Shown: positions 17,987 to 43,632 of the stretch, piece by piece
Position numbering within the stretch: the stretch's first letter is position 1
Layout of the letters: every line of letters starts with the position of its first letter
Translations under genes and position numbers: made by a program
Assembly (NCBI GenBank): GCA_049801295.1
Contig: JBARKH010000644.1
Span: forward strand, 1 to 57,340
Origin: Stellaceae bacterium
GTDB taxonomy: Bacteria; Pseudomonadota; Alphaproteobacteria; ATCC43930; CGMCC-115725
Length of the DNA stretch: 57,340 bases
Reading direction: 5' to 3'
The notes under the pieces: model-generated
The model's input: the letters and a program-made list of their open reading frames with translations, nothing else
Databases searched by the model: none
Told to the model about the DNA's origin: nothing

Positions 17987-18084
17987 GATTGCCATTGGAG
18001 GCCTCCCCGGAGATCTACGGTACAACCCTCTCGGTAAGAGCGGGGACCGTCCATCTCATTATGTGCGCGACGATCGGCCGTTTG

Positions 18085-18506: not shown

Positions 18507-18529
18507 GCGCTGCCTACGATGAGGCGACC

Positions 18530-19233: not shown

Positions 19234-19704
19234 TCAGCTGCCGGGTGGCGATCCGGGGGCTTGGGGAGCGAGGATCTCGTATAGCTCAGCACCGGTCGTG
19301 GCAGCGCGCAGCTGTGCGGCCGCGTCGCGGTCCCGCAGCCGGCGCGACACGCAGGCGAGCGCGGCCAGATGATCGTTGCCCGCCAGGTCCGGAATCAGCA
19401 GCAGGAACACCAGATCGACCGGCCGCTCATCGATCGCGGTAAACTCGATCGGTCGCTCCAACCGGGCAAATAGCCCGAAGAAGTCGTGCAGGCCGCCAAC
19501 GCGGGCATGCGGTACGGCGATCCCTTGCCCAACGCCCGTCGAGCCGAGCGCTTCCCGAGCCTCCAGCGCATCGAGGATCGATTGCGGATCGATCGCCAAG
19601 AGCTTTGCAGCACGCTGCGACAGATCGCGCAGGAGCTGCGCCTTGTCGCCGACGCGCAGGGCGGCGATTACACGCTCGGGGGCGATAAGATCGGTGATGT
19701 TCAC
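19234..19704 (-). CDS. ptsN: PTS EIIA-Ntr (PtsN)-like nitrogen regulatory protein, kdp-linked paralogue
   Basis: Track ORF 19234..19776. I favour GTG at 19704 (AGGAAA upstream), giving (M)NITDLIAPERVI..., a typical PtsN N-terminus. The phospho-His motif GQGIAVPHARV is present. An ATG at 19776 would overlap kdpE. Confidence 0.8.
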   Translation of the reverse strand: MNITDLIAPERVIAALRVGDKAQLLRDLSQRAAKLLAIDPQSILDALEAREALGSTGVGQGIAVPHARVGGLHDFFGLFARLERPIEFTAIDERPVDLVFLLLIPDLAGNDHLAALACVSRRLRDRDAAAQLRAATTGAELYEILAPQAPGSPPGS

Positions 19705-19744
19705 CAGCGTCGCGCTTTCCTGGGGATGAGTATCGGCGGCGCGA

Positions 19745-20443
19745 TCAATCCGAAGCCCGCATCCGGTAGCCGACACCCTGCTCGGTCAGAATGTATCGAG
19801 GCTGTTCCGGGTTCGCTTCGATCTTGTGACGCAGCGCGCGGATGTAGATGCGCAGATACTGGATCTGCCCCTCGCCGCCCCAGACCTCGCGCAGGATGAA
19901 CCGATGGGTCAGCACCTTGCCCGCATGCGCGACAAAGAGGCGCAAGAGATCGTATTCCCGCGGCGACAGCTTCACCTCGACGCCCCGCTCGGTGACGATG
20001 CGGCGCACGAGATCGACCGTGAGCTCGCCGCAGCGGAACACCGGCCGCTCTCCCTCCTGTTGCAGCCGATGGCGTACCGCAGCGCGGATGCGCGCGAGCA
20101 GTTCATCGATGCCGAAAGGCTTGGTGACATAGTCGTCGGCACCCAGGTCGAGCGCCTTCACCTTGCCGGTTTCGTCGGTCCGGCTCGACAGCACGACGAT
20201 CGGTACGGTGGAACCTTGACCGCGCACGCGCTCGATAATGTCGAACCCGTTGATGTCCGGGAGGCCAAGATCGAGGACGAGGATGTCGATGGGACCGCGG
20301 CGCAGACCCTCCAGCGCGGCTGTCCCGTTCTCCGCCTCGGCGACATGATAGCCCTGCGCGGTGAGGCTGGTTCGCAGGAACCGGCGTATGGCGGGTTCGT
20401 CGTCGACAACCAGCACCTTGAGCGGAGCGGCCTTTGCCATCAT
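19745..20443 (-). CDS. kdpE: two-component response regulator KdpE (OmpR family)
   Basis: Receiver domain (VLVVDDE...DLGLPD...) plus winged-helix output (LTVDLVRR...LSPREYDLLRLF...YLRIYIRALRHKIE). The start overlaps the kdpD stop by 4 nt. Confidence 0.92.
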   Translation of the reverse strand: MMAKAAPLKVLVVDDEPAIRRFLRTSLTAQGYHVAEAENGTAALEGLRRGPIDILVLDLGLPDINGFDIIERVRGQGSTVPIVVLSSRTDETGKVKALDLGADDYVTKPFGIDELLARIRAAVRHRLQQEGERPVFRCGELTVDLVRRIVTERGVEVKLSPREYDLLRLFVAHAGKVLTHRFILREVWGGEGQIQYLRIYIRALRHKIEANPEQPRYILTEQGVGYRMRASD

Positions 20444-23163
20444 GCGGCAATGTCCTGCGATGCTTCCTGCCCGGCCGGAACCGGAAAGCTGATCGTGAAG
20501 ACGGCGCCGCGCCGATCCTCGCGGTTGCCGGCGACGATCGTCCCGCCCATCGCCTCGACAAACCCCCTGCAGATGGCGAGGCCAAGGCCGGTCCCGGTCC
20601 CGGCCCGCCGGCTGTCTACAGCCTGCACGCGGTAGAACTTGTCGAAGATCCGTTCCAGATCGCCGGGGGGAATGCCCTGACCCTCGTCCATTACCTGGAG
20701 AAGCACGGTATCGCCCTCGCGCCGTGCCGAGAGCCGGACCTTCGTGTCAGCGGGGGTATATTTCGCGGCGTTGTCCAATACGTTGAACAGCACCTGCTCG
20801 AAGAGGACTGGGTCAAGCTTCAGCATCGGCAGGTCGGCGCTGAGATCGGCCGCCACGCGGTGCTTGGCCAACACCTTGCTGGCCCGCTCCAGCGCGCTGC
20901 CGACAATGTCGCCGACATCGATCAGGTCGGCACGCGGCTGCACTGCACCCGCCTCAATGCGTGTCATGTCGAGTAGGTTCGCGATGAAGCGGTTGAGTCG
21001 CTCCGATTCCTCCTGGATCGTGCCGATCAGCTCGTCCTGCGCCGCCTCGTCGAGGGTGTGACGATAGTTCTTGAGGCTTGTCGCGGAGCCCAGGATGGAA
21101 GCGAGCGGCGTCCGCAGGTCATGCGAGAGGGATGTCAGCAGCGCCGAGCGCAGCCGCTCCGTCTCCGCCGCGAGCCGCGCCTGGTCGACATCCTTGGCCA
21201 GGGATATCCGCTCGATGGCAAGTGCGGCCTGGTCGGCGAGCGCGTCGAGCAGACGGCGCTGGTCGGGTGTGAGCAGCGGGCCCTGGCGGTCATTGTCAAG
21301 CCCGATCACCCCAACCGGCCCACGCCCGGTACGCATCGGCAGAAACAACCGCTTCGCGCCGGGTAGGGTGTCCGCGCCGCGGCCCGCCGCGCGATTGCTC
21401 TGCCAGGCCCATTTGGCCGCCGCGAGATCGGCCTCGTCCAGCGTGTCCTCGGGCGGATAGCCGGCCCGCACCACGATACTCTCGCCCTCCGGCAGCAGCA
21501 GGACCACACGCACCTTCAGCATGAGGGCGATCTGGTAGGCGGTTGCCCACAGAAGATCCTCGAGATCGACAGCGACGGCAAGCTTGCGGCTGAACAGGTA
21601 GAGGTCCTCGGTCGTCGTCGCGCGCTGGCGGGCGGCGAATGCCTGGCTACGGACGCGCGCGGTCAGATTGCTCGCAATCACCGCGACCACGGCGAACGCG
21701 ACCAGCGCGACGACATTCTCCGGGTCGGCGATCGTGAAGGTGTAGAGCGGCGGCAGGAAGAAGAAGTTGTAGGCGAGCACACTCGCCAGGCAGGCCAACA
21801 GCGATGGCCATAATCCGTAGGTGACCGCGCTCGCCAGCACTGCCGTCAGGAAGACGAGAGCGATATTGGATATGCCGAGGAACTGCTGCAGTCCGAGCCC
21901 GAGCGCGAGCGCCGCGGCGACCATGCCGAGGCTGCCTGCATAAGGCACGACGTCAATCGTCTCTTGGCTGGGCGCGGTTGCCACGCCGCTGCCTGGCTCG
22001 CGCACCGGCTCTTCAACCTCGCGCTGCTCGGCGATTACGTGGACGCTGATATCCCCGGCGCGCTTGATCAGCTGGTACGTTACCGACCCGCGGAACGGCG
22101 CCGACCAGCGCCAGCCATGTGGCCTAGCGACGACCACATGGGTAAAATTATTTGCCCGGGCGTAATCAACGACAGAAGTCGCCACATCGGTTCCAGGGAC
22201 GGTCACTGCTTCGCCGCCGAGCCTTTGCGCGAGGCGCAGACATTCCGCGATCCGGTCCCTTGCGGCCTCCGCGAGACGCTGCGACGCCGAGGTCTCGACG
22301 TAGATGGCCGACCACGGCGCGCGCAGGCGGTCAGCAAGGCGCCGGGCGTAGCGCACGACCGATGCGCTATTCTGGTCGTCGCTGACGCAGACCAGCACGC
22401 GCTCGCCTGCTGCCCAGGGACCTGAGATGGCGTGCGCGCGCATATAGCTGAGCATCTGCTGATCGACGCGCTGCGCGGTGCGGCGTAGCGCCAGTTCGCG
22501 CAGCGCGGTCAGGTTGCCCGGCCGAAAATAGTGGCGGACGGCGCGCTCCGCCTGTTTCGGCACATAGACCTTGCCTTCATTGAGCCGCTGGATGAGGTCC
22601 TCGGGCGTCAGGTCGACAACCTCAACTTCGTCGGCCCGATCGATCACCGAATCGGGAACGGTTTCGCGCACTCGAATGCGGGTGATCCGGGCGACGATGT
22701 CGTTCAGGCTTTCGACGTGCTGGATATTCAGGGTTGTGTACACGTCGATGCCGGCGTCGAGCAGTTCCTCGACGTCCATGTAGCGCTTGGGATGCCGGCT
22801 GCCGGGCGCGTTCGTATGGGCGAACTCATCGACCAGCACCAGCGCCGGCCGGCGCTTCAGGATAGCGTCAAGATCCATCTCCTCGAGCCAGCGCCCCTTG
22901 TACTCGACCCGCCGGCGTGGGATGACCTCGATACCTTCGAGGAGCCCCTCGGTCTCTCTGCGGCCGTGCGTCTCGACGATGCCGACGACGACGTCGGTCC
23001 CGTCGCGCCGTTTGGCCTGGGCCGTCATCAACATCTCGAAGCTCTTGCCGACCCCAGGCGCGGCTCCGAGAAAAATCTTGAGGCGGCCGCGACCCTCCTG
23101 TGCCGCTTGCTGAAGCAGCGCATCGGGTGAGGGGCGATTGTCCCGGGTTACTCCGCTATCCAT
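20440..23163 (-). CDS. kdpD: sensor histidine kinase KdpD
   Basis: 907 aa. Has the N-terminal KdpD domain with Walker A (LGAAPGVGKSFEM), a USP-like domain, four TM segments, the H-box SLSHDLRTPL, and N/G boxes. Confidence 0.95.
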   Translation of the reverse strand: MDSGVTRDNRPSPDALLQQAAQEGRGRLKIFLGAAPGVGKSFEMLMTAQAKRRDGTDVVVGIVETHGRRETEGLLEGIEVIPRRRVEYKGRWLEEMDLDAILKRRPALVLVDEFAHTNAPGSRHPKRYMDVEELLDAGIDVYTTLNIQHVESLNDIVARITRIRVRETVPDSVIDRADEVEVVDLTPEDLIQRLNEGKVYVPKQAERAVRHYFRPGNLTALRELALRRTAQRVDQQMLSYMRAHAISGPWAAGERVLVCVSDDQNSASVVRYARRLADRLRAPWSAIYVETSASQRLAEAARDRIAECLRLAQRLGGEAVTVPGTDVATSVVDYARANNFTHVVVARPHGWRWSAPFRGSVTYQLIKRAGDISVHVIAEQREVEEPVREPGSGVATAPSQETIDVVPYAGSLGMVAAALALGLGLQQFLGISNIALVFLTAVLASAVTYGLWPSLLACLASVLAYNFFFLPPLYTFTIADPENVVALVAFAVVAVIASNLTARVRSQAFAARQRATTTEDLYLFSRKLAVAVDLEDLLWATAYQIALMLKVRVVLLLPEGESIVVRAGYPPEDTLDEADLAAAKWAWQSNRAAGRGADTLPGAKRLFLPMRTGRGPVGVIGLDNDRQGPLLTPDQRRLLDALADQAALAIERISLAKDVDQARLAAETERLRSALLTSLSHDLRTPLASILGSATSLKNYRHTLDEAAQDELIGTIQEESERLNRFIANLLDMTRIEAGAVQPRADLIDVGDIVGSALERASKVLAKHRVAADLSADLPMLKLDPVLFEQVLFNVLDNAAKYTPADTKVRLSARREGDTVLLQVMDEGQGIPPGDLERIFDKFYRVQAVDSRRAGTGTGLGLAICRGFVEAMGGTIVAGNREDRRGAVFTISFPVPAGQEASQDIAA

Positions 23164-23319: not shown

Positions 23320-23925
23320 CTACTTGCTCGCGCTCGCGTCGAGCGCCAGGTTGAGCTTCAGCACATTGACGCGCGGCTCCCCGATGATACCGAGGAAGCG
23401 CTCTTGGGTGTTGGCGGCAACAAGTCGCCGCAGCTGATCTTCCGACACAGAACGGGCCTTGGCGATGCGCGGTACCTGGAACAGCGCGCCCGCCGGCGTG
23501 ATGTCGGGATCGAGGCCGCTCGCCGAGGTCGTCACCAGATCGACCGGCACCGGCATCGAGGGGTTCTCGGCGTGCAGTTTGCCGGCATCTTCGGTGACGC
23601 GGTCGATCAGCGCTTTCGAAGTCGGCCCCGCGTTGGAGCCGCTCGAATTGTCGGCGGCGTAAGGCACGGGAACCGTTTTTGTCGAATCCTTCGGATCGGG
23701 CTCGGTCGTGGCGGACGGCCGGCCATGGAAGTACTTGGCATCGGTAAAGCTCTGGCCGATCAGCTCGGATCCGATGACCTTGCGATTCTTCTCGATCAGG
23801 CTGCCGTTGGCCTGATGCGGAAAGACCAGTTGCGCGATGCCGGTCATGCCGAGCGGGTAGATCAAGCCGGTAATAACCGTCATTGCGACGATCATGACGA
23901 TCGCGGGGCGAATTTCTTTCAACAT
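23320..23925 (-). CDS. kdpC: K+-transporting ATPase subunit C
   Basis: Trimmed to [29 protein letters not shown]... Conserved SGLDPDITP motif. Confidence 0.9.
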
Positions 23926-23944
23926 CGGTGGATGTCCTTGAGGC

Positions 23945-26059
23945 TTAGGCCAGGCCGACGGCGGTGACGGCGAGATCAATCAGCTTGATGCCGATGAACG
24001 GCACAATGATCCCGCCGATGCCGTAGACCAGGAGGTTGCGGCGCAGAATGCTGGCGGCTCCGACCGGGCGGTAGGTGACGCCGCGCAGCGCCAGTGGGAT
24101 GAGGGCGATGATGATCAGCGCATTGAAGATGATCGCCGAGAGGATCGCACTGTGCGGCGTCGCCAGATGCATGACGTTGAGCGCCTGCAGCTGCGGGTAG
24201 AAGACAACGAACATTGCCGGGATGATGGCGAAGTACTTCGCCACGTCGTTGGCGATCGAGAAGGTGGTCAGCGCGCCGCGGGTCATCAGGAGCTGCTTGC
24301 CGATCTCGACGATCTCGATCAGCTTCGTCGGGTCGCTGTCGAGGTCGACCATGTTGCCGGCTTCGCGCGCCGCCATGGTTCCCGTGTTCATTGCCACGCC
24401 GACATCGGCTTGCGCCAGCGCGGGGGCGTCGTTAGTGCCATCGCCGCACATGGCGACGAGCTTGCCCTGCGCCTGCTCGTCGCGGATCAGCTGCAGCTTG
24501 TGCTCGGGCGTTGCCTGAGCCAGGAAGTCGTCGACCCCCGACTCGGCGGCGATCGCCGCGGCGGTCATCGGGTTGTCACCGGTGATCATGACAGTGCGGA
24601 TGCCCATCTTGCGCAGCGCGGCGAAACGCTCGCGGATGCCGCCCTTGACGATGTCCTTCAGATGTATGACGCCCAACAGGCGGCCATCCTTGGCGACGGC
24701 GAGCGGGGTCGCGCCCGACTTGGCGACGCCCTCGGCGATCGTTTCAAGCTCCCGCGCGGCGGGATTGTGAACCACAGCGACCGCGACGTTGCCGCGCGTC
24801 ACCGGAGCGGCACCAGGCCCAGCGTTGACGTAGGACAGCACCGCATCGACGGCACCCTTGCGAATAGAGGAGCCTTCGAGGTCGATGCCGCTGATCCGCG
24901 TCTGCGCCGAGAACGGGATGAATTGGGCGTTGAGCGGAGCCATCTCGCGGCCGCGGATGCCGTATTTTTCCTTGGCGAGGACGACGATCGAGCGGCCTTC
25001 AGGCGTCTCGTCGGAAAGCGAGGCGAGCTGCGCCGCATCGGCGAGCTCGCGCTCATCGACACCCGACAGCGGCAGAAATTCCGTCGCCTGGCGGTTGCCG
25101 AGGGTGATCGTACCGGTCTTGTCGAGAAGAAGGGTGTCGACATCGCCCGCCGCCTCGACGGCGCGCCCGGACATCGCCAGCACGTTGAAGCGCACGAGAC
25201 GGTCCATGCCGGCGATGCCGATCGCCGACAGCAAGGCGCCGATCGTCGTCGGGATCAACGTCACGAAAAGCGCGACCAGCACCAGGACGCTGAGGCTGCC
25301 GCCGGCGTAAGAGGCAAAGCTAGGGATCGTCGCAACGGCAAAGACGAAGATGATCGTCATGCCGGCCAAGAGGATGTTGAGCGCGATCTCGTTCGGAGTC
25401 TTCTGCCGTTCGGCGCCTTCAACGAGCGCGATCATGCGGTCGAGGAAGGTCGAGCCTTGGGCCGCGGTGATGCGGACCTTGATCCAGTCGGAAATGACCT
25501 CCGTGCCGCCGGTCACGGCCGAGCGGTCGCCGCCGCTTTCGCGGATGACGGGCGCGGATTCGCCGGTGATCGCCGCCTCGTTGACCGAGGCGACGCCCTC
25601 GATCACATCGCCATCGGACGGGATCGAGTCGCCGGCTTCGACCAGGACGACATCGCCCGGCTTCAGCGAGGTCCCCGGAACCTGGCGCGACTGCCCGTCC
25701 TGCCCGGACAAAAGCTTGGCCATCGTCTCCGTCTTGGATTTGCGCAACGTCGCCGCCTGCGCCTTGCCGCGGCCTTCCGCCACCGCCTCGGCCAGATTGG
25801 CAAAGACCACGGTGAACCAGAGCCAAAGGTTGATCTGGAACGAAAAACCGTAGCCGCCGGCGCCGGTGACGAGATCGCGCAGAAACAGGATCGTCGTCAG
25901 CGTCGCGACCAGTTCGACCGCGAACATGACCGGGTTGCGCACCATCAGACGCGGATCGAGCTTGCGGAAAGCCTGACCGATTGCCGGCCCGAGGATCTTC
26001 GGGTCGGTCAGCGTCGCGACCGGCATCCGCTTGCGGGTTTGTGAGAATTCCATCGTCAT
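23945..26059 (-). CDS. kdpB: K+-transporting P-type ATPase subunit B
   Basis: DKTGTIT phosphorylation motif, [15 protein letters not shown]; 704 aa. Confidence 0.95.
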
Positions 26060-26089: not shown

Positions 26090-27817
26090 CTAGTAAAGGG
26101 TGCCGGCATGCATCGCGAGATGCTCGACCAAGGGGCCGAGCGCGACCGCCGGGAAGTAGGTCAGGCCGCCGACGATCAGGATGACGCCGACGAGCAGGCC
26201 GACAAACAGCCCGCCATGCGTCGGGAACGTGCCGGCCGAGGCCGGGACGATCTTCTTCGCAGCGAGCGCACCGGCTATGGCCAGCATCGGCACGATCATC
26301 AGGAAGCGGCCGATGAACATCGCCAGGCCCAAGGTCGTGTTGTAGAATGGCGTGTTTGCCGAGATGCCGGCGAAGGCGCTGCCGTTGTTCCCTGTCGCCG
26401 AATCGAAGGCGTAGAGGATCTCGCTGAAGCCGTGCGGGCCCTGGTTCGCGGGGCCGGCGAGGCCGTCAGGTAGCACCGTCGCGAGCGCGGTGAAGCCGAG
26501 GATCGACAGGGGCAGGATCAGTATGGCGAGCATCGCCATCTTGACTTCCTTCGCCTCGATCTTCTTGCCGAGATATTCCGGCGTGCGCCCGACCATCAGC
26601 CCGGCGACGAACACCGCGACGATGGCGAACAGCAGCATGCCGTACATCCCCGAGCCGACGCCGCCGAAGATGATCTCGCCCAGCATGATGTTGACCATCG
26701 GCACCGCTCCGGCGAGCGGCATCAGGCTGTCATGCATGTTGTTGACAGCACCGCACGAGGCATCGGTCGTTACGGTCGTAAAGAGGGCCGAGTTGGCGAT
26801 GCCGAAACGAACCTCCTTGCCTTCCATGTTGCCGCCGGCTTGCAATGCGCTTGGCGCCTGGTCGACGTGCAGCGCGGCGAAGGCGGGATTGCCCGGCGCC
26901 TCGGCCCAGTAGGCGATGACGACGCCCGCCAGGAACAGCACGCCCATGACGGCGAAGATGGCCCAGCCCTGGCGCTGATCGCCGACCATCCGGCCGAATA
27001 CATTGGTCAGCCCCGCGCCGATCGAAAAAATCAGCACGATCTGCACGAGATTGGTGATCGCGGTCGGGTTCTCGAAGGGGTGGGCGGAATTGGCGTTAAA
27101 GAAGCCGCCGCCGTTGGTCCCCATCATCTTGATGACTTCCTGCGAGGCTACGGGCCCCTGGGCGATGACCTGCTTCGCGCCTTCGAGTGTCGTCACCTCG
27201 GTGTAGGCGCCGAGGTTCTGCGGCATGCCTTGCCAGACGAAGAACAGCCCGACGACGATCGAGATCGGCAACAGGATGTAGAGCGTGCAGCGGGTCAGAT
27301 CGACCCAGAAATTGCCGATGCCCTGCACCGAGCGACGCGCAAAGCCGCGGATCAGCGCGACCGCGAGCGCGATGCCAGTCGCGGCGGAGACAAAATTGTG
27401 CACCGTCAGACCGGCCATCTGCGTGAGATAGCTCATCGTCGTCTCGGGCACGTAGGACTGCCAGTTCGTATTGGTGATGAAACTGACCGAGGTGTTGAAC
27501 GCGAGGCTCTGCTCGACCTCCGACTGCCCCGCCGGATTGAAGGGCAGGACCGCCTGCAGACGTTGCAGCGCGTAGAGCGTGACGAAGCCGGCCATGGTGA
27601 AGAACAGCATCGCGACGGCATAGGTCACCCAATGCTGTTCCTGCTTCTCGTCGACGCCGCACAGCCAGTATATGCCGCGCTCGATCGGTACCAGAACGGG
27701 CGACAGAACATTTCGCTCTCCGGCGAAGACACGGGTCATATAGCCGCCGAAGGGCTTGACCAGTAGCGTGACGATCGCGGCATAGATCGCGATCTGGATC
27801 CAACCATTGGGTGTCAT
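26090..27817 (-). CDS. kdpA: K+-transporting ATPase subunit A (canonical copy)
   Basis: 575 aa. The four P-loop motifs are canonical: [47 protein letters not shown]. Confidence 0.95.
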
Positions 27818-27945: not shown

Positions 27946-28029
27946 TCAGATGCGGTCGCAAGCCACGACATAGAGCACGGCAACAGCCAAGAAGCCGAAG
28001 CCGACGGCTAGATAGATCGCGTCGAGCAT
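27946..28029 (-). CDS. second KdpF-like hydrophobic micro-ORF (27 aa)
   Basis: MLDAIYLAVGFGFLAVAVLYVVACDRI, preceded by GGAGA 5 nt before the ATG. Its TGA abuts the kdpF Shine-Dalgarno (..atcTGAGGAGGctgcgATG..). Confidence 0.45.
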   Translation of the reverse strand: MLDAIYLAVGFGFLAVAVLYVVACDRI

Positions 28030-28299
28030 CACCAATCTCCATTCGTCAGCGCTTATGCCGGATGGCACGAGCGCGTTCCCGCTCAAGAACCGGGAGTTGG
28101 GCATGGGTCCCGATGCAGGGGCGCGCCGGATCTCCGCACGCGCCTGTGCCCCGCCTCGCCGCCAAGATCGCGAGATCCACATAAAAGTTCGAGACCGATC
28201 TGCAGCCCCGGCTCATTAAGATCCGATGCAGACCGGTACCGTGGCGCCCAGGCTCCATCAGCCGGCGCTCCGCACACAAGTCACCGCCGAAGTCTACGC

Positions 28300-28583: not shown

Positions 28584-28898
28584 TTACGCCATGACTGCGT
28601 CGAGGACGCGCATCAGGACTCCGATAGCCAGAAAAGCCGCCATCTCGTCCCAGGCGGTCAGCATGGCAGCGCCGTGCCTTTGATCGCGGAACCACGCCGC
28701 CGCTCCGGCAAAGAAGCTATGCCAAAAACAGAAAAACGATAGGGTACCCAGCAGGGGAAAGCCGCGTTGCGTCGCCAGCGCCACCGACACCGGTACTATG
28801 ATCAGGAGCTTGAAGGCGAAAACCTGAATCCGCAGGCGCGACCCAGGATCGAGCCCGTCAAAACAGGTCGCGATGGAGTCGAGATATTTCTCGCGCAT
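28584..28898 (-). CDS. hypothetical membrane protein (about 3 TM)
   Basis: 104-aa ORF with hydrophobic segments (FAFKLLIIVPVSVALA, LLGTLSFFCFWHSFFAGAAAW, MAAFLAIGVLM). Last gene of a same-strand string of small ORFs. Confidence 0.5.
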   Translation of the reverse strand: MREKYLDSIATCFDGLDPGSRLRIQVFAFKLLIIVPVSVALATQRGFPLLGTLSFFCFWHSFFAGAAAWFRDQRHGAAMLTAWDEMAAFLAIGVLMRVLDAVMA

Positions 28899-28922: not shown

Positions 28923-29348
28923 TCAGCTCTTCGACGCCGGAGAAACGCGAAAAACCGAGGCCGTGCCGGAGACAGCCCGCGACGTGCGGGTTCTGCGGTA
29001 GAGGGAGAAGAGGTGGCAAATGGTCAGGGAAGCAGTACAGCGCCGCAGGCGATTGCGAATTTGGACAAATCTCGATGCGCTCGCCGGTTTAGTCGTGCGT
29101 CCGACGCCGGCGCGTCGATATCCGGCCGGTCGGCAGAGCTGATGCGGCCATCCCTGCTCCTGATAGACCACCAGGTAAAGGCCATCGACGAACAGCTCGA
29201 TCACGGCCGGCGCCGATGCGCATCGCCGCTTGGCGTATTCGAGGCCTTCGGACAGGTCCTCGAATTCGGCAACCGATTGCCCCGGCAGACCTGTGATCGA
29301 CCAGGTGCCGACCGGATCGCGGTGGTGGATTTGAAGGCGCAAGTCCAT
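28923..29348 (-). CDS. hypothetical protein
   Basis: The 141-aa ORF has a protein-like N-terminal half (MDLRLQIHHRDPVGTWSITGLPGQSVAEFEDLSEGLEYAKRR...LYLVVYQEQGW). The C-terminal half is Arg/Ser-rich and may not be genuine. Confidence 0.4.
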   Translation of the reverse strand: MDLRLQIHHRDPVGTWSITGLPGQSVAEFEDLSEGLEYAKRRCASAPAVIELFVDGLYLVVYQEQGWPHQLCRPAGYRRAGVGRTTKPASASRFVQIRNRLRRCTASLTICHLFSLYRRTRTSRAVSGTASVFRVSPASKS

Positions 29349-29605: not shown

Positions 29606-29863
29606 TCAATGCGCGACGCCGAGCGGCAGAGAAAGCAGCATCCGCACCGCCAGCGCGCCGATCATGATCAGCAGCAGGACCGAAAACGTCGCACCGATTT
29701 CACGAAACGTCCGCATCCCGGCTTTCACCCGGTGCGAGACATCCCTCTGGGTCCGCGTCTTGCCTATTCGCTCGCCTCGGGACTTGGCGAAATCCATGAC
29801 GGCCATGTTGCATTCACTCCGCTCCGACACCGGCTCGGTGACGCCATAGAAAAGACCCTTCAC
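29606..29863 (-). CDS. hypothetical C-terminally membrane-anchored small protein
   Basis: 85 aa with a single C-terminal TM (FSVLLLIMIGALAVRMLLSLPLGV). An internal ATG (MAVMDF...) is possible. Confidence 0.4.
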   Translation of the reverse strand: MKGLFYGVTEPVSERSECNMAVMDFAKSRGERIGKTRTQRDVSHRVKAGMRTFREIGATFSVLLLIMIGALAVRMLLSLPLGVAH

Positions 29864-30579
29864 GAGTAAAAGTTCGAGCCGTCCCGGACACGCGAATTAT
29901 AAAAAAGCCATAACCGAGGCGATCAATGGCCTGTTTTTTCCTGAATTTTTAGGCGTGGACGGCCTTTTCTCCCGCGGATCGTATCCCCCGAAAACACGAA
30001 GACCACTCGGCAGCCCGGAGATCTATACGCCAGCTATACGCGCCGACCGCCGTCTCAATATCGACTCTTTATGCAGAGCCGCCGATCTGGCCGCTGTCAC
30101 CGGTGTCACGTCGATACCGATCAGAGCAGAGTTCGGCGAAAATGCAGCTCAATTTTGTAAGCACGAGCCACATTCCTGATGGTTCCTCGGGCCGTTACCG
30201 CACGGCGGCTTCTCGCGAGCATCCAGTAATCGCGAGGATCGAGCGGATTGCCGGGCGCATTACCGATGGGATTATCGCTAGGGCACCGCTGTTTTGGCTG
30301 GCGCTCCTTTTCGCGTTCGTAGCGGTATCGCTCGGGGTCATTCCGAACGAGTAATGAGGAGCCTCAGATCTCGTCCTACGAGGACAGGCTCGACGGCCGG
30401 CTAGCCGACGTGCTCAAACAGCCGCGGCCATCCGGCGTTCTCGCTGGTTGAATGAGCCCTTCCCTCGAAGGGGAGCTTCCAATGTTTGCCTTGATCGTTG
30501 TGGATTTGCGGCCGGCTGGCGCCTTCGCGCCCGGCTGGCACTCAGCCGCCGGGCGATCTTCCACCGAGGAGAGCCCCCG

Positions 30580-32307
30580 ATGAGCGCCGTCGGGTGGGGG
30601 CAGATCGGCCTATTGGCGCTGTTCATCGGCCTTTTGGTGAGGCCGTTGGGCGGATACCTGGCTCGCGTCTACGCCGGCGAGCGCACGCTGTTGCAGCCGA
30701 TCCTCGGACCGATCGAAACCGCGCTTTACCGCTTGGCAGGGGTGGATGCCTCGGTCGAGCAGAAATGGTCCGAATACGCGGTCGCCCTCCTCCTCTTTCA
30801 CGCGGTCGGGAACGTTGCGCTCTATCTTCTCTTCCGAACCCAGGATCTGTTGCCGCTCAATCCGCAGCTTCTTCCAGGGACTTCACCGGACCTGGCGTTA
30901 GACACCGCGGTCAGCTTTGTGACGAATACCAGCTGGCAATCCTATGGCGGCGAGACGACGCTGTCTTATCTCCCCCAGATGGCCGGGATCACGGTTCAGA
31001 GCTTTCTCTCCGCGGCAGCCGGCATGGCTGTTGCCGTGGCACTGGTCCGCGGTCTTTCACGCCGCACCACCGGCACAATCGGCAATTTCTGGGTGGACCT
31101 CACGCGTGGCACGCTCTACGTGCTGCTGCCGATCTGCACCGTCGCGGCCTTGTTCTTCATGGAAGAGGGCGTGCCGCAGACTTTCGATCGCTACGTCCAG
31201 ACGGAAACCGTGCAGGCGGGGACGCAACTCATCGCGCGCGGGCCGGTCGCTAGCCAGGAGGCGATCAAACTGTTGAGCGGCGACGGCGGCGGCTTCTTCA
31301 ACGTGAATTCGGCACATCCCTTCGAAAATCCGACGCCGCTCACCAATATCGCGGAAATGGGGCTGATCCTGTTGGTTGGGGCGGCCTTGACCAACACTTT
31401 CGGCCGCATGGTCGGCAGCGAAAGGCAAGGCTGGACCTTGCTTGCGACCATGACGATCCTGTTCGGGTTGGGTTTTGCCGGCCTGTACGCGCTGGAGACG
31501 CGCGGCAACCCGGAGCTCGCCTCGGCAGCGCTGGACCAGGCGCCGGGCCCCTTGCAGCCCGGCGGCAACATGGAAGGCAAGGAGGTGCGCTTCGGCATTG
31601 CCGGCTCGGCGCTCTATGCCGAGGCATCGACCGCGTCGTCGGACGGCGCGGTCGACGCGATGCACGACAGCTTCCTGCCGCTCAGCGGCGCGATCCTGCT
31701 CGGCAACATGATGGTGGACGAGGTCATCGTCGGCGCGCCCGGCTCGGGCTTATGGGGGATCCTGCAGTTCGCCCTGGTCACCGTTTTCATAGCGGGTCTG
31801 ATGATCGGACGGACGCCGGAATATGTCGGCAAGAAGATCGAGGCGCGCGAAATCAAGATGGCAATGCTGGCGCTGCTCGTGGCGCCGGGTTTGATCCTCG
31901 TCCTGACTGCATTGGCGAGCGTCGTTCCTCCGGGACTCGCTGGGCCGGGCAATGCCGGGCCGCACGGTTTTTCGGAGATCCTTTACGCCTACACCTCGGC
32001 AGCGGCCACCAATGGCAGCGCCTTCGCCGCGTTGACCGCAAACACGCCTTTCTACAACCTGACGCTGGCGCTGGCGATGTTCGTGGGTCGGTTCTTCGTC
32101 GTCGTGCCGGTACTCGCGATTGCCGGCTCACTTGCGGCCAAACGCTCCGTACCGCGCTCGGCGGGGACCCTGCCGACGGATGGTCTTCAATTCGTCCTGC
32201 TACTTACCGGGACGATCGTGATCGTCGGCGGTCTCAGCTTCTTCCCGGCACTCTCGCTCGGGCCGGTCGTCGAGCATTTCGCGATGCAGGCTGGAGTCTC
32301 TTACTGA
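30580..32307 (+). CDS. orphan divergent KdpA-family paralogue (no kdpB/kdpC partner in cis)
   Basis: Track ORF 30448..32307, trimmed to MSAVGWGQIGLLALFIGLLVRPLGGYLARVYAGERTLL with GAGGAG upstream. 575 aa and collinear with kdpA, but the P-loop motifs differ: [48 protein letters not shown]. Confidence 0.9.
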   Translation: MSAVGWGQIGLLALFIGLLVRPLGGYLARVYAGERTLLQPILGPIETALYRLAGVDASVEQKWSEYAVALLLFHAVGNVALYLLFRTQDLLPLNPQLLPGTSPDLALDTAVSFVTNTSWQSYGGETTLSYLPQMAGITVQSFLSAAAGMAVAVALVRGLSRRTTGTIGNFWVDLTRGTLYVLLPICTVAALFFMEEGVPQTFDRYVQTETVQAGTQLIARGPVASQEAIKLLSGDGGGFFNVNSAHPFENPTPLTNIAEMGLILLVGAALTNTFGRMVGSERQGWTLLATMTILFGLGFAGLYALETRGNPELASAALDQAPGPLQPGGNMEGKEVRFGIAGSALYAEASTASSDGAVDAMHDSFLPLSGAILLGNMMVDEVIVGAPGSGLWGILQFALVTVFIAGLMIGRTPEYVGKKIEAREIKMAMLALLVAPGLILVLTALASVVPPGLAGPGNAGPHGFSEILYAYTSAAATNGSAFAALTANTPFYNLTLALAMFVGRFFVVVPVLAIAGSLAAKRSVPRSAGTLPTDGLQFVLLLTGTIVIVGGLSFFPALSLGPVVEHFAMQAGVSY

Positions 32308-32433: not shown

Positions 32434-35292
32434 TCACGGAGGCAGCAGGATCTTTTCGAGCTGTTCCAACAGCTCGCCATAGCGGACGAAATTGCCCGAG
32501 GCGTATTGCTGCTGCATATCGTGAAACACGGCGCGGGCACGCTCGATCCGATCGAGATTAGTTGCAGCGGATGGCGCTCCGGCCGACTGCTCGGCGCGGA
32601 CCCCGACCAGAAGCTTCTCGGCTTCGCTGAGGCTGTTCGCCCACTCGATCTTGCGGTCGTCGGGGAGCAATTGTCCGAGCACGACGCGGGCGAGCGTCGG
32701 GATCTTGGTCTGCTCGGCCTCGATATAGATGGGCTCGATCGCCACCAGTTGATTGTCGTTGAGCGGCAGGATGAGCAAGTTGCCATGAATCACGCGAGAG
32801 CCGTGCTGGTCCCATAGCGTCAGATCGCCCGAGAACCGGCTGTCCGAGTTGATCCGCGACTCGATTTGTGCCGGACCATCGACGAACCGCCCCTTGGGAA
32901 AGCGGAACGCGACAAGCTTGCCATAGTTCTCGCCGTCAGACCGGCCGGCAAGCCATCCGGCCATCTGGTTCTTGCCCGCTACCGACAGCGGCAGCATCAG
33001 CATGAACTCCGGGTGATCGGCCTGCGGCAGCTGGGCCATCACATAGTAAGGCTGAACCTCGATCTCGCGGTCGCGGTAGAGCTCTCGCGGCACCTCCCAT
33101 CGATCCTCCCGGTTATAGAACGTGGTCGGGTTGGTCATGTGGTAGGTGCCGTACATTTCCGCCTGAGCGGTAAACAGATCCTCGGGGTATCGAATGTGAC
33201 GGCGGAGATTTTCGGGCATCTCGCTGCGGTCGTGAAACAGGTCCGGCAACATTTTCCGATACGCTTTGATGATCGGATCGTCAGTACCAAAGACATAGAA
33301 GGTCACCGCGCCATTATACGCATCGACCACCGCCTTGACCGAATTACGTAGGTAATTGAGGTCAGAGAAGTTAGATAGCGAACCGTGATAGACAGCGCTG
33401 TAAGGGTAGTTCGCGGAACTCGTATAGCCGTCGATGATGTAAGAGTAATGATCACCATCGGCGACGATATAGGGGTCGTGATCGAAAGTGAGGAACGGCG
33501 CCAACCGTTCGACGCGTTCGATAATGTTACGGCGGATCATCACGCGGCTGTCCGGGGTGAAGTATCCCGAAATGAACAGCCGCAAGCCGTCGAATTCATG
33601 GGCGATGACGAGCTTGCGCCAGAGGTTCGACAGGAGAATCCCGCCCTTACCGCCATATATGGTCTCGGCGTTCGCGTCGCCCTGCGGGAAATCAAATTCC
33701 TTCTCGGTGGTGTGCACGTAGACCCGGTCGCGGGTTAGCATGCCGAAGTAGATTTCGCCATGGCTGACCGCGAGGTCGCCCTTGGCCTGGATTGGAATAT
33801 CGTGCGCCCATAGGACCGGATTTCCGCGGCTGTCGATCTCGTTGACCGGAACCGCTACGGCACCGTAGCCATGGGTATATTTGAGTGCGAGGTTCACCCA
33901 CACCTGGGCTGCCGCCGGGAGCTTAGCAACATCGAGTTCGCGTGCCGTAATCATTACCTGACGTTCGACACCGTCGATCTGATAGCGATCAATGTCGACA
34001 CCGCCGAAGGTGTAATAGGGGCGCAGGCCTTGGATCTGCTGCAGCTGGGGTTCGAGCGCGCGCCAATCCCAGATGCGCGCATCGCGCAGTGTCGCCGCGT
34101 TCTTGTCGAGATCTTCGCGGCCGAGCGGAGTTGCCGAGACCGCGAATTCCTGTTCTTCGACATTCGGCCCATCGAGCCCATAGGCCCGCCGCGTGCCGGC
34201 AATGCTGCGGACGAGGTAGGGCTGTTCGAGGGTTATCTGGTTAGGGCCGACATAGAGATGCTCGACCGCTGTCGGGAGGATCTCCGCGCCCAGGTAGACA
34301 GTGACGAGAACGCCGCACGGTGCCGCCCAATGCCAGCGTGCGGCAAACAGCCAGCGACGGAATTGCGGCATGGCCGCGGCGGCCGCCAAGGCAATTGCGG
34401 CTGCCACCCAGCAGGCGATCATCGTGCCATAGGCCGGCAGCCAGAAATGGATGTCGACGAACGAGGCGCCGGCAATGACGGCGGAATGTCCGTCGATGAT
34501 AAGGTGATACCGGCCGAAAAAGAGCGCGAGGGCGGAACCGAGGCAGAACAATCCGCCCAGCATCATCCCCTGACGAAACCAACCGTCCCAGGCGATCCGG
34601 CGGACGGCGATGAAAGCTTCGTCACCCGCCCCCAGCTCGTCGGGTGAGCGCTGGTCGATCAGGGCGGGGTAACGGCTGTGGTAGCGCCAGGGCTGTCCCG
34701 GGCGCGGATAGAAAAGAAAGCCGATACCGGCCCAGGCGGCGATCGTCACGAGAAGGATCGTGATGACGAGATAAACTGCACTTTCATAAAGCGGCAGAGC
34801 GAGAAGGTAAAAAGATAGATCCTTGCCGAGGACCGGGTCGGTTACACCCGACGGCGCGGCCCCGAGGAAGGCCGTTAGCGGCGTCCAAAGGCTGGTGGCG
34901 CGGAATGCGATCAGCGCTGAAATGATGAAGCCGACAAACCACGGCGCGCTACGCGGCACGATCTCCACTGGCCGGCACACCGCCCGCAGATTGAACGCGG
35001 TGAACAAGCCGCCGAAAGCCAAGATCGAGACAAAAATTGCTACCCGCAGTCCCAGCGCGAACCAATAGCGGTATTGTTGGCCGAGCTCGTCGAACCAGTA
35101 ATTCTGCAACGCAATCGTGAAAATCATCTCCATTGCGATGATCGCGATGATCATGCCCGCGACATAGGCCAGGTCCCGGTAGATGCGGTGGATAAAGGCG
35201 ATCGACGGCGGGTTGCCCCGATTTTGCAAAACCGTCATCGTGAGCGGCAGCGCGGCGAGAAGGACGAGGATCAGATAGCTGACTGCAAACAT
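32434..35292 (-). CDS. UPF0182-family large membrane protein
   Basis: 952 aa. N-terminal polytopic region followed by a large soluble region with motifs I associate with UPF0182/COG1615 (YTFGGVDIDRY, LKYTHGYG, YYVMAQLP..., LILPL...IEPIYIEAE). Confidence 0.8.
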   Translation of the reverse strand: MFAVSYLILVLLAALPLTMTVLQNRGNPPSIAFIHRIYRDLAYVAGMIIAIIAMEMIFTIALQNYWFDELGQQYRYWFALGLRVAIFVSILAFGGLFTAFNLRAVCRPVEIVPRSAPWFVGFIISALIAFRATSLWTPLTAFLGAAPSGVTDPVLGKDLSFYLLALPLYESAVYLVITILLVTIAAWAGIGFLFYPRPGQPWRYHSRYPALIDQRSPDELGAGDEAFIAVRRIAWDGWFRQGMMLGGLFCLGSALALFFGRYHLIIDGHSAVIAGASFVDIHFWLPAYGTMIACWVAAAIALAAAAAMPQFRRWLFAARWHWAAPCGVLVTVYLGAEILPTAVEHLYVGPNQITLEQPYLVRSIAGTRRAYGLDGPNVEEQEFAVSATPLGREDLDKNAATLRDARIWDWRALEPQLQQIQGLRPYYTFGGVDIDRYQIDGVERQVMITARELDVAKLPAAAQVWVNLALKYTHGYGAVAVPVNEIDSRGNPVLWAHDIPIQAKGDLAVSHGEIYFGMLTRDRVYVHTTEKEFDFPQGDANAETIYGGKGGILLSNLWRKLVIAHEFDGLRLFISGYFTPDSRVMIRRNIIERVERLAPFLTFDHDPYIVADGDHYSYIIDGYTSSANYPYSAVYHGSLSNFSDLNYLRNSVKAVVDAYNGAVTFYVFGTDDPIIKAYRKMLPDLFHDRSEMPENLRRHIRYPEDLFTAQAEMYGTYHMTNPTTFYNREDRWEVPRELYRDREIEVQPYYVMAQLPQADHPEFMLMLPLSVAGKNQMAGWLAGRSDGENYGKLVAFRFPKGRFVDGPAQIESRINSDSRFSGDLTLWDQHGSRVIHGNLLILPLNDNQLVAIEPIYIEAEQTKIPTLARVVLGQLLPDDRKIEWANSLSEAEKLLVGVRAEQSAGAPSAATNLDRIERARAVFHDMQQQYASGNFVRYGELLEQLEKILLPP

Positions 35293-41124: not shown

Positions 41125-43632
41125 TCAAACCGGAGCCTCGGACGAATTTACGCGATCCGCAGTGTTCATCACCCGCCGGGCCTCAGCGATGCGATTGATC
41201 GTGGCTTTCGCTTCGGGGTTCGCCGCTATGAACCGCTCGAAATCCGCCCGCCGCAATACGAGCAGCTGGCAATAGGTCAGAGCGACGACGTCTGACTGCC
41301 GCGGCCGACCGGACAGCAGCGCCAATTCCCCGAAGAACTCGCCGCTCCCGAGCCGCACGCGCCGCTTCTGGAGGATCACCTCGACCGCCCCGGATGCGAT
41401 GAAGAAGACTGCATCGCCCCGCTCCCCCTTGCGAATGATGTGATCGTTCGGTACCGCGAAGCGGGGACGCAACAGCCGGCACACGCGGTCGAGCTGGCGC
41501 TCGTCAAGGCCGGCCAATATGTCGAGCCGGCCAACCAACTGATGGGTGTCGAGCCCGATATCGAAGCGGGGGCGCTGTTCGGCGGCCCGGGCGCCGAGCA
41601 CGCTTCGCTTCAAATCGTCGTACACCTCATGCGCGATCAGCCCCTCCTCGAACAGGCTCTGATATCGCGTTAATTCCTGGCGCAGCGTCGATTGACGGAG
41701 AAACCGCACCTCGATCTCCGCCGCGTAATCGGGGTATTGCCGGCGCAGCGCATCGAGCGCGCTGGCGACCGCGTCGCGCCGCTGGCCGATGATCTCGCCG
41801 GTGATGCCGGCGATGCGCTCGCCGAAGAGCGGGCGCACCTGCTGATCGATGAAGCGGACCAAGCGCTCGATCGCGAAGCCCATGATCAAGAGGATTTCGA
41901 GCCGATCGGCGAGGCGGTCAGCGAGAGGTCGGACGATGCCCAGCCGGCGATAGAGAAAATGGGCGAAGCGAAAGCCGAACGGAAACGCGAGGGCCGCCTC
42001 GCCGGCTTTGCGATAACCGAGGCGCCCTTCGCTCCGCGCCGCCTCGGCAAAGGCGTCGGCGTTACCAAGCAACACCTGGACCGCGGCCGGCGAGGCAACC
42101 CGATCGCTCCCCATCCCGAGGACCAGCACGCGCTCCTGGTTGCCGAGAGCGACGAGTGCAATCGCCAGACGGTCTCGCTCGGTCAGGTTCGGTGTCGTGG
42201 CCGCCTCGGCGTTGGCCGCCGCGATCTTGGCTTCATAGGGGGCGATGGCGCGCTCGACGGTCGATGGGGAGAGAGCGTGAGTCCGCGCGATCTCGTGCGC
42301 CGCCTCGCGGGCCTCCGTATAGGACAGTGCCAGGATCTGGTCGCGCAGCGCCGCATCTCTCGGCGATAAGCGGTCCAGGCCCAAGAGACCGATGACCAGA
42401 CGCAGCGTCGTGCCGTTGACAAACAATGTGAACAGCACGAAGCCGGTCGCCAGCACGGCGACAAAGCGCTGGATATCCGGCGGCAGCGCCCGGTTTTCGG
42501 TCACCGCCAGGGCCAACACCAAGGTCAGCGCGCCGCGCAGACCGCCCCAGATGATCGCGAGCTTGTACGAGGCGTCGATGCGCTGGGTCAGCCCGAAATG
42601 CTCGAGCGGCGGTACGAGGATGAATAGCGCGAAAACGCGCGCTCCGAACGCGGCCGCGATCGTCACGCCCAACAAGAGCACGTCGCGAAACCCGATATGG
42701 ACCAGCAGTCTCGGGACCAGGATCGAGGCCAGCACAAAGATCAACGACCGCGCCCAGAACGCGATCTGTTCCCAGAGATCGGCGAGGAATGACCAATTTT
42801 CAGGGGCGATCCGGGACGGTCCGAGCGCACTTACCGTCAGGCCCGCCACCAAGACCGCCACCACGCCGGACACGTGAAAGAGGCGCTCCGCAGCGATAAA
42901 CGCCAGGTAGGCAAAGGCCAGGGTCAGCGTTGCTTCCGCCAGCCGGTCGTCGCCAACCCGCGGAATGATCCAGAGCAAGAAGCGGCCCGCAAGGAGCCCG
43001 ACGATCCCACCGCCGACAAAGGACACCGAAAACTCGCCGAGCCCGGCGGCCGCATTCGGTTCGCGCCCCGTCAGGATCATTCCGAGGAGCACGACGAACA
43101 GCGCAATCGCGGCGGCGTCGTTGAGCAACGCTTCTCCCTCGACCAGCCGCGTCAGCCGCGCTGGCGCGCCGACGTCGCGGAAGACGGCGATGACCGCCGC
43201 CGGGTCCGTCGTGGCGACGACGGCGCCGAGGAGGAGGCAAACCACGAGCGGAACCCCCGCGAACGGCCACAGGGCAAAGCCGACCATCGCCGTCGCGATC
43301 AGTGTGGCGATAACCGCGAGGAGCAATATCGCGGCGGCGTCTTCGAGAGTCCGTCTGACGTCCGTGGCAATCCCGGCCTCGAAAACGAGCAGCGGCAGAA
43401 AAACGTAGATGAAGGTGACCGAATTGACCGGCACATCGCCAAACGGCCCGATGCCGACCGGGCCGGACAGCCCCAATTGGTTCGAGACCGCCGGGAACGC
43501 GCCGATCCCGACACCAACCGCGGCAAGCAGAACGGATGGCGGCACCTTCAGGCGAACCGCAAGCGGCTGGCTTATCCCGACAACGACCAGCAGGCTCGCA
43601 ATGACGAGCAGCACAAACACGGTATCAAGCAT
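41125..43632 (-). CDS. CPA1-family Na+/H+ (cation/proton) antiporter fused to a C-terminal cyclic-nucleotide-binding domain
   Basis: Trimmed to MLDTVFVLLVIASLLVV... About 12 TM with an ATDPAAV-type motif, then a long linker and a cNMP-binding fold (FFGELALLSGRPRQSDVVA). Confidence 0.85.
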   Translation of the reverse strand: MLDTVFVLLVIASLLVVVGISQPLAVRLKVPPSVLLAAVGVGIGAFPAVSNQLGLSGPVGIGPFGDVPVNSVTFIYVFLPLLVFEAGIATDVRRTLEDAAAILLLAVIATLIATAMVGFALWPFAGVPLVVCLLLGAVVATTDPAAVIAVFRDVGAPARLTRLVEGEALLNDAAAIALFVVLLGMILTGREPNAAAGLGEFSVSFVGGGIVGLLAGRFLLWIIPRVGDDRLAEATLTLAFAYLAFIAAERLFHVSGVVAVLVAGLTVSALGPSRIAPENWSFLADLWEQIAFWARSLIFVLASILVPRLLVHIGFRDVLLLGVTIAAAFGARVFALFILVPPLEHFGLTQRIDASYKLAIIWGGLRGALTLVLALAVTENRALPPDIQRFVAVLATGFVLFTLFVNGTTLRLVIGLLGLDRLSPRDAALRDQILALSYTEAREAAHEIARTHALSPSTVERAIAPYEAKIAAANAEAATTPNLTERDRLAIALVALGNQERVLVLGMGSDRVASPAAVQVLLGNADAFAEAARSEGRLGYRKAGEAALAFPFGFRFAHFLYRRLGIVRPLADRLADRLEILLIMGFAIERLVRFIDQQVRPLFGERIAGITGEIIGQRRDAVASALDALRRQYPDYAAEIEVRFLRQSTLRQELTRYQSLFEEGLIAHEVYDDLKRSVLGARAAEQRPRFDIGLDTHQLVGRLDILAGLDERQLDRVCRLLRPRFAVPNDHIIRKGERGDAVFFIASGAVEVILQKRRVRLGSGEFFGELALLSGRPRQSDVVALTYCQLLVLRRADFERFIAANPEAKATINRIAEARRVMNTADRVNSSEAPV

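Follow-up and report, generated by a model that had tools for sequence, protein, structure and literature searches.

The stretch of Stellaceae DNA analysed here (contig JBARKH010000644.1 of assembly GCA_049801295.1, 57,340 nucleotides in its full length, hereafter the window) encodes two KdpA proteins. One belongs to a complete resident kdp operon on the minus strand, in the order micro-ORF (a very short open reading frame, ORF), kdpF, kdpA, kdpB, kdpC, kdpD and kdpE. The other, here called kdpA2, is encoded separately on the plus strand. This variant belongs to the KdpA sequence family but fails two features of canonical members, the invariant residues of the ion filter and the position in the operon. 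The genes concerned are:

30580..32307, plus strand: kdpA2, the variant kdpA, 575 amino acids (aa), with filter loops TNTSWQ, SGDGGG, SSDGAV and ATNGSAF, and also D380 and A386-P387
27846-27935, minus strand: kdpF, 29 aa (PF09604, NF011342)
26090-27817, minus strand: canonical kdpA, with filter loops TNTNWQ, GTNGGG, SCGAV and NNGSAF
23945-26059, minus strand: kdpB, 704 aa; the window has no other P-type ATPase partner, and kdpB is presumed to be that of kdpA2
23320-23979, minus strand: kdpC, in the resident operon
20440-23163, minus strand: kdpD, in the resident operon
19745-20443, minus strand: kdpE, in the resident operon
32434-35292, minus strand: UPF0182 gene, the next after kdpA2 and convergent with it

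The kdpA2 reading frame of 575 codons has zero internal stops (translation of 30580-32307, plus strand). Its product matches the Pfam KdpA profile PF03814 with 764 bits (residues 13-567 on profile positions 4-548 of 548), the NCBIfam equivalog model TIGR00680 (kdpA) with 711 bits at a cut-off of 387.7, and the structure chain 6hra_A with an E-value of 4e-167. KdpA was the sole match in a Pfam search at E <= 0.01, which returned no TrkH-type profile. The two KdpA proteins are 60% identical over 575 residues, gap-free, and the start codons of their divergent genes are 2.76 kb apart. Lacking from the 57-kb window is any second kdpB or kdpC. The first-pass annotation had described a full-length KdpA about 2.7 kb from the operon on the opposite strand, with no kdp partner gene behind it and a convergent next gene; the reading frame, the PF03814 and TIGR00680 matches and the UPF0182 gene bear this out, and every motif string that it quoted for the two paralogues occurs exactly so in the translations.

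We aligned 125 variant proteins with 85 canonical copies (83 from fetched loci, nearly all of them followed by kdpB, plus the operon copy of the window and that of E. coli), using E. coli numbering via PDB 6HRA. Residues that are conserved in the alphaproteobacterial variants and differ from the canonical state are N114S, L133I, N137S, G229S, T230G, N231D, T339S, A342S, C344D, P362L, G369D, G375A, V376P and N466T; G369D is D380 of KdpA2, and G375A and V376P are A386-P387. The canonical copies carry the motifs TNTNWQ, GTNGGG, S(C/N)G(A/S) and NNGSAF. Between 99 and 100% of them have N114, N137, G229, T230, N231 and V376, where the variant has S, S, S, G, D and P, and 88% have C344, where the variant has D344. 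The complete variant motif set occurs in 0 of the 85 canonical copies. The first-pass annotation had named frequent occurrence of such motifs in ordinary kdpFABC operons as a finding that would count against it, and the kdpA genes of those operons lack them.

In published structures and simulations, the S3 site is formed by carbonyls of N112, T113, T230, S343, C344, N466 and N467. The S4 site is assigned to A342, S343, G374, S378 and N466 in molecular dynamics simulations and to S343, S378 and N466 in cryo-electron microscopy work, and the S4 region is lined by the side chains of N112, T230, S343 and N466. The substituted positions T230, C344 and N466 are themselves S3/S4 ligand positions, with A342 an S4 ligand in the simulations, as expected from the earlier claim that the substitutions lie within the selectivity filter, and N114S, G229S, N231D and V376P adjoin ligand positions. 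Read against these ligand lists, the substitutions fall within the filter, immediately behind it or in the loop beneath it. From the register of the same lists (112/113, 230/231, 343/344 and 466/467, then the following residue) we infer that N114 is the D1 equivalent of G232, G345 and G468, so that the canonical series N-G-G-G becomes S-G-G-G in the variant.

The variant also gains aspartates, D231 and D344 throughout and D369 in the alphaproteobacterial clade. In the membrane core of canonical KdpA, E370 and R493 are normally the sole charged residues; the core of the variant has two to three extra Asp. Combined, the changes predict a different binding site, with two carboxylates in the S3 ring, the T230 hydroxyl lost, Ser at the "glycine" position of D1, four glycines among five residues of the D2 strand, and Pro under S4. 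Such a site might prefer NH4+, a smaller ion of high field strength or a divalent ion, or might bind K+ with another affinity or at another pH. Two kdpA genes followed by kdpB have an acidic residue at 344 alone (TSDGAV in L044, 965-2689, and ASEGAV in L005, 10001-11725), with the other filter positions canonical, and these may be partial intermediates toward the variant.

Some details of the first-pass annotation need revision. The N-to-D change in loop 3 (D359, E. coli position 348) is not fixed, as 70% of the clade has N there and 30% has D, and the residue is Ile in E. coli, making it no determinant of the filter. The N-to-T change in loop 4 (N466T) stands for the alphaproteobacterial clade, as a clade-specific rather than a general feature. 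The clade-defining changes L133I, N137S, G229S, P362L, G369D, G375A and V376P had been missed.

KdpA2 is one member of an alphaproteobacterial clade of at least 125 sequences with 100% conservation of the signature residues. Identity to it ranges from 70 to 97% among the best 120 database homologues, all of them nearer than the operon paralogue. These homologues are near full length (556-589 aa), and 120 of 120 carry (T/S)N(T/A)SWQ, (S/G)GDGGG, SDGA and TNG(S/G). Judged by source names and record titles, these sequences come from Alphaproteobacteria of soil and peat (Stellaceae, Aliidongia, Xanthobacteraceae, Rhodopila, and metagenome-assembled genomes labelled Methyloceanibacter). The frame is intact in all of the approximately 20 variant loci retrieved as DNA. 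The ratio of nonsynonymous to synonymous substitution rates (dN/dS) is 0.14-0.22 in 18 of 18 pairs within the clade (dS 0.07-1.26); between the window and locus L174 it is 0.19 for the variant, 0.055 for canonical kdpA and 0.067 for kdpB. The intact gene claimed at first pass is thereby upheld, and the dN/dS check proposed there makes it clear that kdpA2 is under purifying selection, looser than that on the canonical copy.

A redundant duplicate that is drifting to loss, with filter changes that are neutral or damaging, could be expected to show a dN/dS about three times that of its canonical counterpart, as kdpA2 does, and an upstream micro-ORF that has degenerated, as in the window. We consider this explanation effectively refuted by the intact frames, the near full length of the homologues, a dN/dS of approximately 0.18, and a signature that is fixed across the clade and recurs in a second one.

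The closest relative (L173, 97% identical) has frameshifting indels in canonical kdpA (9), kdpB (16) and kdpC (3) and none in kdpA2 or the UPF0182 gene, which could be taken as operon decay and so as a sign that kdpA2 is independent of KdpB. With the indels removed, canonical kdpA of L173 reads through without a stop and retains 133 of the 134 invariant residues, and L086, a contig of the same sample, has split genes too. We therefore treat the indels as assembly errors in a strain-variable region and reject decay. The kdp operon of L173 is approximately 90% identical to that of the window, with many 1-bp indels, and its flanks are 97-98% identical. An insertion sequence (IS, with a DDE transposase) lies about 225 bp upstream of kdpA2 in L173, and further IS copies disrupt the Usp region (8068-9417 and 15675-21149).

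A second clade is present in Burkholderiaceae. A Paraburkholderia locus (L080) has a tandem extra kdpA with TNTSWQ, SGDGGG and GGDGAV, and a search with this variant recovered approximately 43 clusters carrying the same motifs. The hosts are Paraburkholderia, Trinickia and Burkholderia (vietnamiensis, multivorans, lata, aenigmatica, oklahomensis, savannae and alba). In Trinickia (L172) and in L080 the gene stands in tandem just ahead of kdpFABCDE; it is 2 kb from kdpABC in B. multivorans (L170) and alone in B. oklahomensis (L171), contexts that mirror those of the alphaproteobacterial clade. Eight substitutions are common to both clades (N114S, L133I, N137S, G229S, T230G, N231D, C344D and V376P). 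In 110 canonical copies those eight positions are 91-100% conserved, six of them (N114, N137, G229, T230, N231 and V376) being 100% invariant. The betaproteobacterial variants keep P362, G369 and G375, leaving V376P as the only change of the D3M2 loop found in both clades. In some genomes a further, very divergent kdpABC whose KdpA is 34-40% identical adjoins the ordinary one (L080, 3925-8246, minus strand; L170, 2872-7845, plus strand; L069, 4443-9489); in Burkholderiaceae the result is "kdp islands" with two full kdp systems and a variant kdpA.

The two clades do not group together in our trees. With the signature columns masked (549 columns, neighbour-joining, a simple distance phylogeny), alphaproteobacterial variants grouped in 100 of 100 bootstraps, betaproteobacterial variants likewise in 100 of 100, and the two together in 0 of 100. 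Each of three sub-regions gave the joint grouping in 0 of 60. The alphaproteobacterial variants branch with the canonical copies of Alphaproteobacteria, and the betaproteobacterial variants with those of Beta- and Gammaproteobacteria. Mean identities agree (0.65 between betaproteobacterial variant and canonical copies, 0.61 between alphaproteobacterial variant and canonical copies, 0.55 between the two sets of variants) and meet the four-point condition for the tree in which each variant group pairs with the canonical group of its own class. We therefore reject a single origin. Recent gene conversion with the resident copy is rejected as well, since a variant resembles the canonical copy encoded in its own genome no more than it resembles those from elsewhere. 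A slight excess of similarity between the clades in the D1 region is compatible with an old mosaic and leaves a small door open. The failure of the clades to group once the signature is masked points to an eight-residue redesign that arose twice, in parallel, and the same signature in two clades is the strongest sign we have of what would be strong selection on a specific function.

Variant genes are often found beside a kdp operon. In about half of the approximately 20 loci the variant adjoins a complete operon with its own canonical kdpA: divergent and a few kb away in the window, L086, L173 and L174; in tandem directly upstream of kdpF-A-B-C-D-E in L001, L084/85, L088 and L091; and just after kdpD in L089. 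No operon is visible in L087 and L090, where flanks are limited or ambiguous. The variant is monocistronic, or preceded by a micro-ORF only, in the window and the related loci, none of which has a kdpB or kdpC of its own after the variant; nor is the operon kdpA ever replaced by it. The label "orphan" given at first pass was therefore overstated, given an adjoining complete operon in about half of the loci with usable flanks and the retention of KdpB-coupling residues described below.

The same contexts bear on a split operon, in which KdpA2 would work with a dedicated second KdpB and KdpC encoded elsewhere in the genome. Burkholderiaceae loci do have more than one kdp system near the variant, L080 and L170 each with a third, very divergent kdpABC (36-40% identity). 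Yet every kdpB beside a variant has its own kdpA immediately upstream, and kdpBC without kdpA was seen in none of approximately 170 fetched loci, and we regard this arrangement as improbable.

Residues by which canonical KdpA couples to KdpB are kept, as are Q116 and the filter glycines. Their roles are taken from PMC6255902 and PMC12629597, and conservation is given over at least 125 variant sequences:

Q116, at the filter mouth: 100% in variants
G232, G233, G345 and G468, in the filter (G232, G345 and G468 are filter glycines): 100%
E370, at the tunnel entrance: 100%
R493, in the vestibule: 100%
R400, forming a salt bridge to D300/D302 of the KdpB P domain: 100%
L541, at the A/B interface: 100%
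F386, at the A/B interface: 99%
V496, in the tunnel: 97%
V538, at the A/B interface: 95%

Along the tunnel-lining D4 segment (E. coli 475-509), variants show stronger conservation than canonical copies do. These coupling features would only make sense if ions exit sideways to KdpB. The orthologues of kdpB, for which the window KdpB served as tblastn query against other loci, have E1-E2_ATPase and Hydrolase domains.

Retained partner contacts beside a heavily altered filter, together with expression that appears separate from the kdp promoter, might also befit a non-transporting regulatory or decoy subunit, which would bind KdpB, KdpC and KdpF, or sense external cations through its acidic filter, and so modulate the pump. 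Against this, the conduction path (G232, G345, G468, Q116, E370, R493 and V496) is strictly conserved, as in a working permeation pathway, and we think such a role quite unlikely.

Sequences upstream of kdpA2 and of the operon contain further small elements:

30482..30583, plus strand: 33-aa micro-ORF whose stop overlaps the kdpA2 start (ATGA); no family match
27946-28029, minus strand: 27-aa transmembrane micro-ORF (MLDAIYLAVGFGFLAVAVLYVVACDRI), conserved, upstream of kdpF, paralogue of the micro-ORF that precedes kdpA2 elsewhere
28181..28221, minus strand: kdp promoter element, a KdpE-like half-site followed by a CTCGAA-N-TA box, in a pattern that matches other kdp operons
29866..29905, minus strand: second promoter-like element, pointing away from kdpA2 toward small minus-strand ORFs

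A 38-aa transmembrane micro-ORF, translationally coupled to the variant, overlaps its start codon (ATGA) in L001, L084, L088 and L091, and has shorter relatives in L002 and L093. The 33-aa micro-ORF of the window keeps the ATGA overlap, has no membrane helix, and is a degenerate counterpart of it. The 27-aa micro-ORF, with the consensus MLDxxxLxxxxxFFxxxxxYxxACxRL, lies upstream of kdpF in approximately 60 fetched kdp operons. Its hosts include Alphaproteobacteria, Acidobacteriota, Binatia and others (examples at L017 9700-9783 and L100 9764-9847). No Pfam or NCBIfam model matches it and the literature searched does not mention it; it may represent a fifth component of Kdp that has so far been overlooked, or else a leader peptide. 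By these sequence relationships, a micro-ORF links the variant to Kdp biology in part of the alphaproteobacterial clade and is not a universal partner. The first-pass annotation had asked whether UPF0182 or the upstream micro-ORF recurs. The micro-ORF does in part of the clade, and is degenerate in the window. UPF0182 does not: it is convergent with the variant only here and in L173, not in other variant loci, and we reject it as a functional partner. Another 70-aa ORF with a C-terminal hydrophobic helix lies between an AT-rich region and kdpA2 (30142-30354, plus strand); it is a called gene in the close relatives L173 and L174, has no family match and is not found in other variant loci.

In Alphaproteobacteria, dozens of kdp operons have promoters with a direct-repeat box and, after it, a CTCGAA element. 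The strict composite pattern is rare (0.007 matches per kb), with 2 matches in the window. The second of these consists of a T-rich direct repeat and a CTCGAACTTTTA box, and CTCGAACTTTTA also occurs at 28182-28193. Both copies, on the minus strand, are conserved in L173 and L174. The second precedes small ORFs of unknown function between kdpA2 and the operon (29606-29863, 28923-29348 and 28584-28898, minus strand), which suggests that these may be regulated like the kdp operon. A KdpE-type promoter driving kdpA2 is rejected, as both copies in the window lie on the minus strand and no variant gene is preceded by one. An alignment of the upstream regions of four tandem loci revealed no common box, and Rfam gave no family above noise in the region upstream of kdpA2, leading us to reject a riboswitch or leader RNA there.

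The window is chromosomal, as it contains rpoD, dnaG, an exosortase/exopolysaccharide cluster and a cytochrome oxidase, and carriage of the variant on plasmids is rejected because no plasmid record exceeds 60% identity to it. About 9 kb from kdpA2 is a fusion of a Na+/H+ exchanger with a cyclic-nucleotide-binding domain (approximately 855 aa; 41125-43704, minus strand), and the same fusion lies directly upstream of the variant in L090 (2020-4581). An Oxidored_FMN/Pyr_redox gene is found near the variant in L087, L089 and L090. Both neighbours are probably residual synteny and not a functional link. Two tRNAs (44132-44220 and 52675-52748) flank a phage-type integrase (51258-52319) and four large ORFs without a Pfam match (44755-49279), a stretch that may be an integrated element.

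Our tentative reading, held with somewhat less than even confidence, is that kdpA2 encodes an alternative ion-entry (A) subunit that would use the resident KdpB, KdpC and KdpF and would have altered ion selectivity or affinity. The first-pass annotation had offered two options; altered selectivity or affinity within the Kdp complex fits better, and a KdpB-independent role less well. In the proposed route, kdpA would have been duplicated, with the copy still in tandem directly upstream of kdpF-kdpA-kdpB-kdpC in several genomes. The ion-binding part would then have been rebuilt: Asn to Ser in D1, in line with the three filter glycines; T-N-G-G to G-D-G-G in the D2 strand; S-C-G-A to S-D-G-A in the D3 strand; a Pro gained in the loop under S4 (V376P); and, in the alphaproteobacterial clade, Gly to Asp beside E370 at the tunnel entrance. 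Neither the tunnel nor the cytoplasmic contact with KdpB appears to have been lost. KdpA2 would take the place of KdpA in a complex with the resident KdpB, KdpC and KdpF, and the ion would be captured at a more acidic and more flexible filter, would follow the same tunnel and would be pumped in by a promiscuous KdpB. The outcome would be a pump with shifted selectivity or affinity, possibly with broadened uptake of monovalent ions (NH4+-like, as in E. coli G232D), a site of higher field strength, or capture of K+ in other regimes of pH or K+ concentration. In E. coli the filter alone sets the selectivity of the pump, and KdpB also pumps Rb+ and NH4+ when given a G232D filter (PMC12629597), which is therefore a precedent for an alternative A subunit. 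A bolder version, which we find rather doubtful, is that KdpA2 would be a natural "selectivity cartridge" whose swap turns the Kdp pump from a K+-specific machine into an ATP-driven importer of another cation, such as NH4+, a smaller monovalent ion of high field strength or a divalent ion, with the eight-residue solution evolved independently in Alphaproteobacteria and Burkholderiaceae.

Several observations weigh against an alternative A subunit. Eight entries (L002, L081, L082, L092-L095 and L171) have no kdp genes within the available flanks. The periplasmic loop at E. coli 195-219, including V207 and E208 (both invariant in canonical copies), is less constrained in variants, as is the 405-424 segment, and both may reflect the loss of a partner contact, for example with KdpC. 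P362L, G369D, G375A and V376P fall in the D3M2 intramembrane loop, the flux gate of the related channels TrkH and KtrB, and could equally open a route to the cytoplasm. The variant dN/dS exceeds that of canonical kdpA about threefold in the genome pair compared above. Co-regulation by KdpDE finds no support in the kdp-type promoter pattern, found upstream of zero variant genes, or in the tandem loci, where the variant lies upstream of the operon promoter and its expression is therefore probably separate from the KdpDE-driven transcript.

Much of this would suit a stand-alone channel or uniporter of the SKT type, in which dependence on KdpB has been lost, the intramembrane-loop changes open the cytoplasmic side, and cations flow down their gradient as in TrkH, KtrB and HKT. 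The absence of kdpB or kdpC in cis from every variant locus, the half or so of loci far from any visible kdp gene, the clade-specific D3M2 changes, the relaxed periplasmic loop and 405-424 segment, and the lack of a kdp-type promoter upstream of variants all favour it. We nevertheless consider it unlikely, though it is the main rival. R400, E370, R493 and the hydrophobic A/B lining are kept at 95-100%, and the D4 tunnel is the more conserved one in variants; adjacency to a kdp operon recurs in two independent clades; only V376P of the D3M2 changes is common to both, the betaproteobacterial clade having kept P362, G369 and G375; and in those variant loci that came with gene calls, none of the called genes is a partner of the RCK type (TrkA/KtrA).

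Comparison with known systems helps to place the alternative A subunit. Canonical KdpA of KdpFABC (E. coli; PDB 5MRW, 6HRA and 7NNL) belongs to the same PF03814/TIGR00680 fold family, and the variant resembles it in the four-repeat architecture, the three filter glycines, Q116, E370, R493, R400 and the tunnel lining. Unlike it, the variant gene lies outside the kdpFABC operon and not directly upstream of kdpB, and six invariant residues are replaced (N114S, N137S, G229S, T230G, N231D and V376P), in addition to C344D, L133I and the clade-specific changes. The E. coli laboratory mutants G232D and Q116R (PMC12629597) are alike in that an acidic or charge change at the filter resets the affinity of the pump, and position 232 is one residue from the natural N231D. 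However, these are single, laboratory-selected, low-affinity mutants of the sole kdpA, whereas the variant has at least eight coordinated natural substitutions in a separate paralogue kept beside wild-type kdpA, with G232 unchanged. In plant HKT transporters, of the same SKT superfamily, Ser or Gly at the filter position of the first loop separates Na+/K+ selectivity classes (class I and class II; PMC7918770). The Ser at 114 of the variant (S-G-G-G) offers a functional parallel by analogy, although HKT proteins are eukaryotic channels without a P-type ATPase partner and canonical KdpA has Asn, not Gly, at 114. E. coli TrkG and TrkH are SKT paralogues that share a genome and differ in their ion transport properties (PMC9898762), but both are channels that use the TrkA/SapD system and neither feeds a P-type ATPase. 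The first-pass annotation knew of no described function for such a KdpA, and we found none: searches for second, orphan or paralogous kdpA and for the residue names, in literature that did not cover all journals, returned no description of the subfamily, and two Burkholderia papers only mention the ordinary kdp operon.

To our knowledge, no pump other than KdpFABC joins a channel-like subunit for ion selection to a P-type ATPase for transport, and all that we know of KdpFABC selectivity was learned from laboratory point mutants of a single E. coli protein. A Kdp specialist would be surprised by the variant. Because it exceeds the equivalog cut-off, annotation pipelines label it plain "KdpA"; thus, genome-based inference of K+ transport capacity silently counts it as KdpA. 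It provides a natural test of how the filter sets specificity in a hybrid channel/ATPase machine, and is a possible case of subunit exchange altering the substrate of a P-type ATPase. It may also provide bacteria of acidic, nutrient-poor soils and peat with a means of cation uptake that has gone unrecognised, and its presence in cultured Burkholderia, Paraburkholderia and Trinickia makes the question directly testable.

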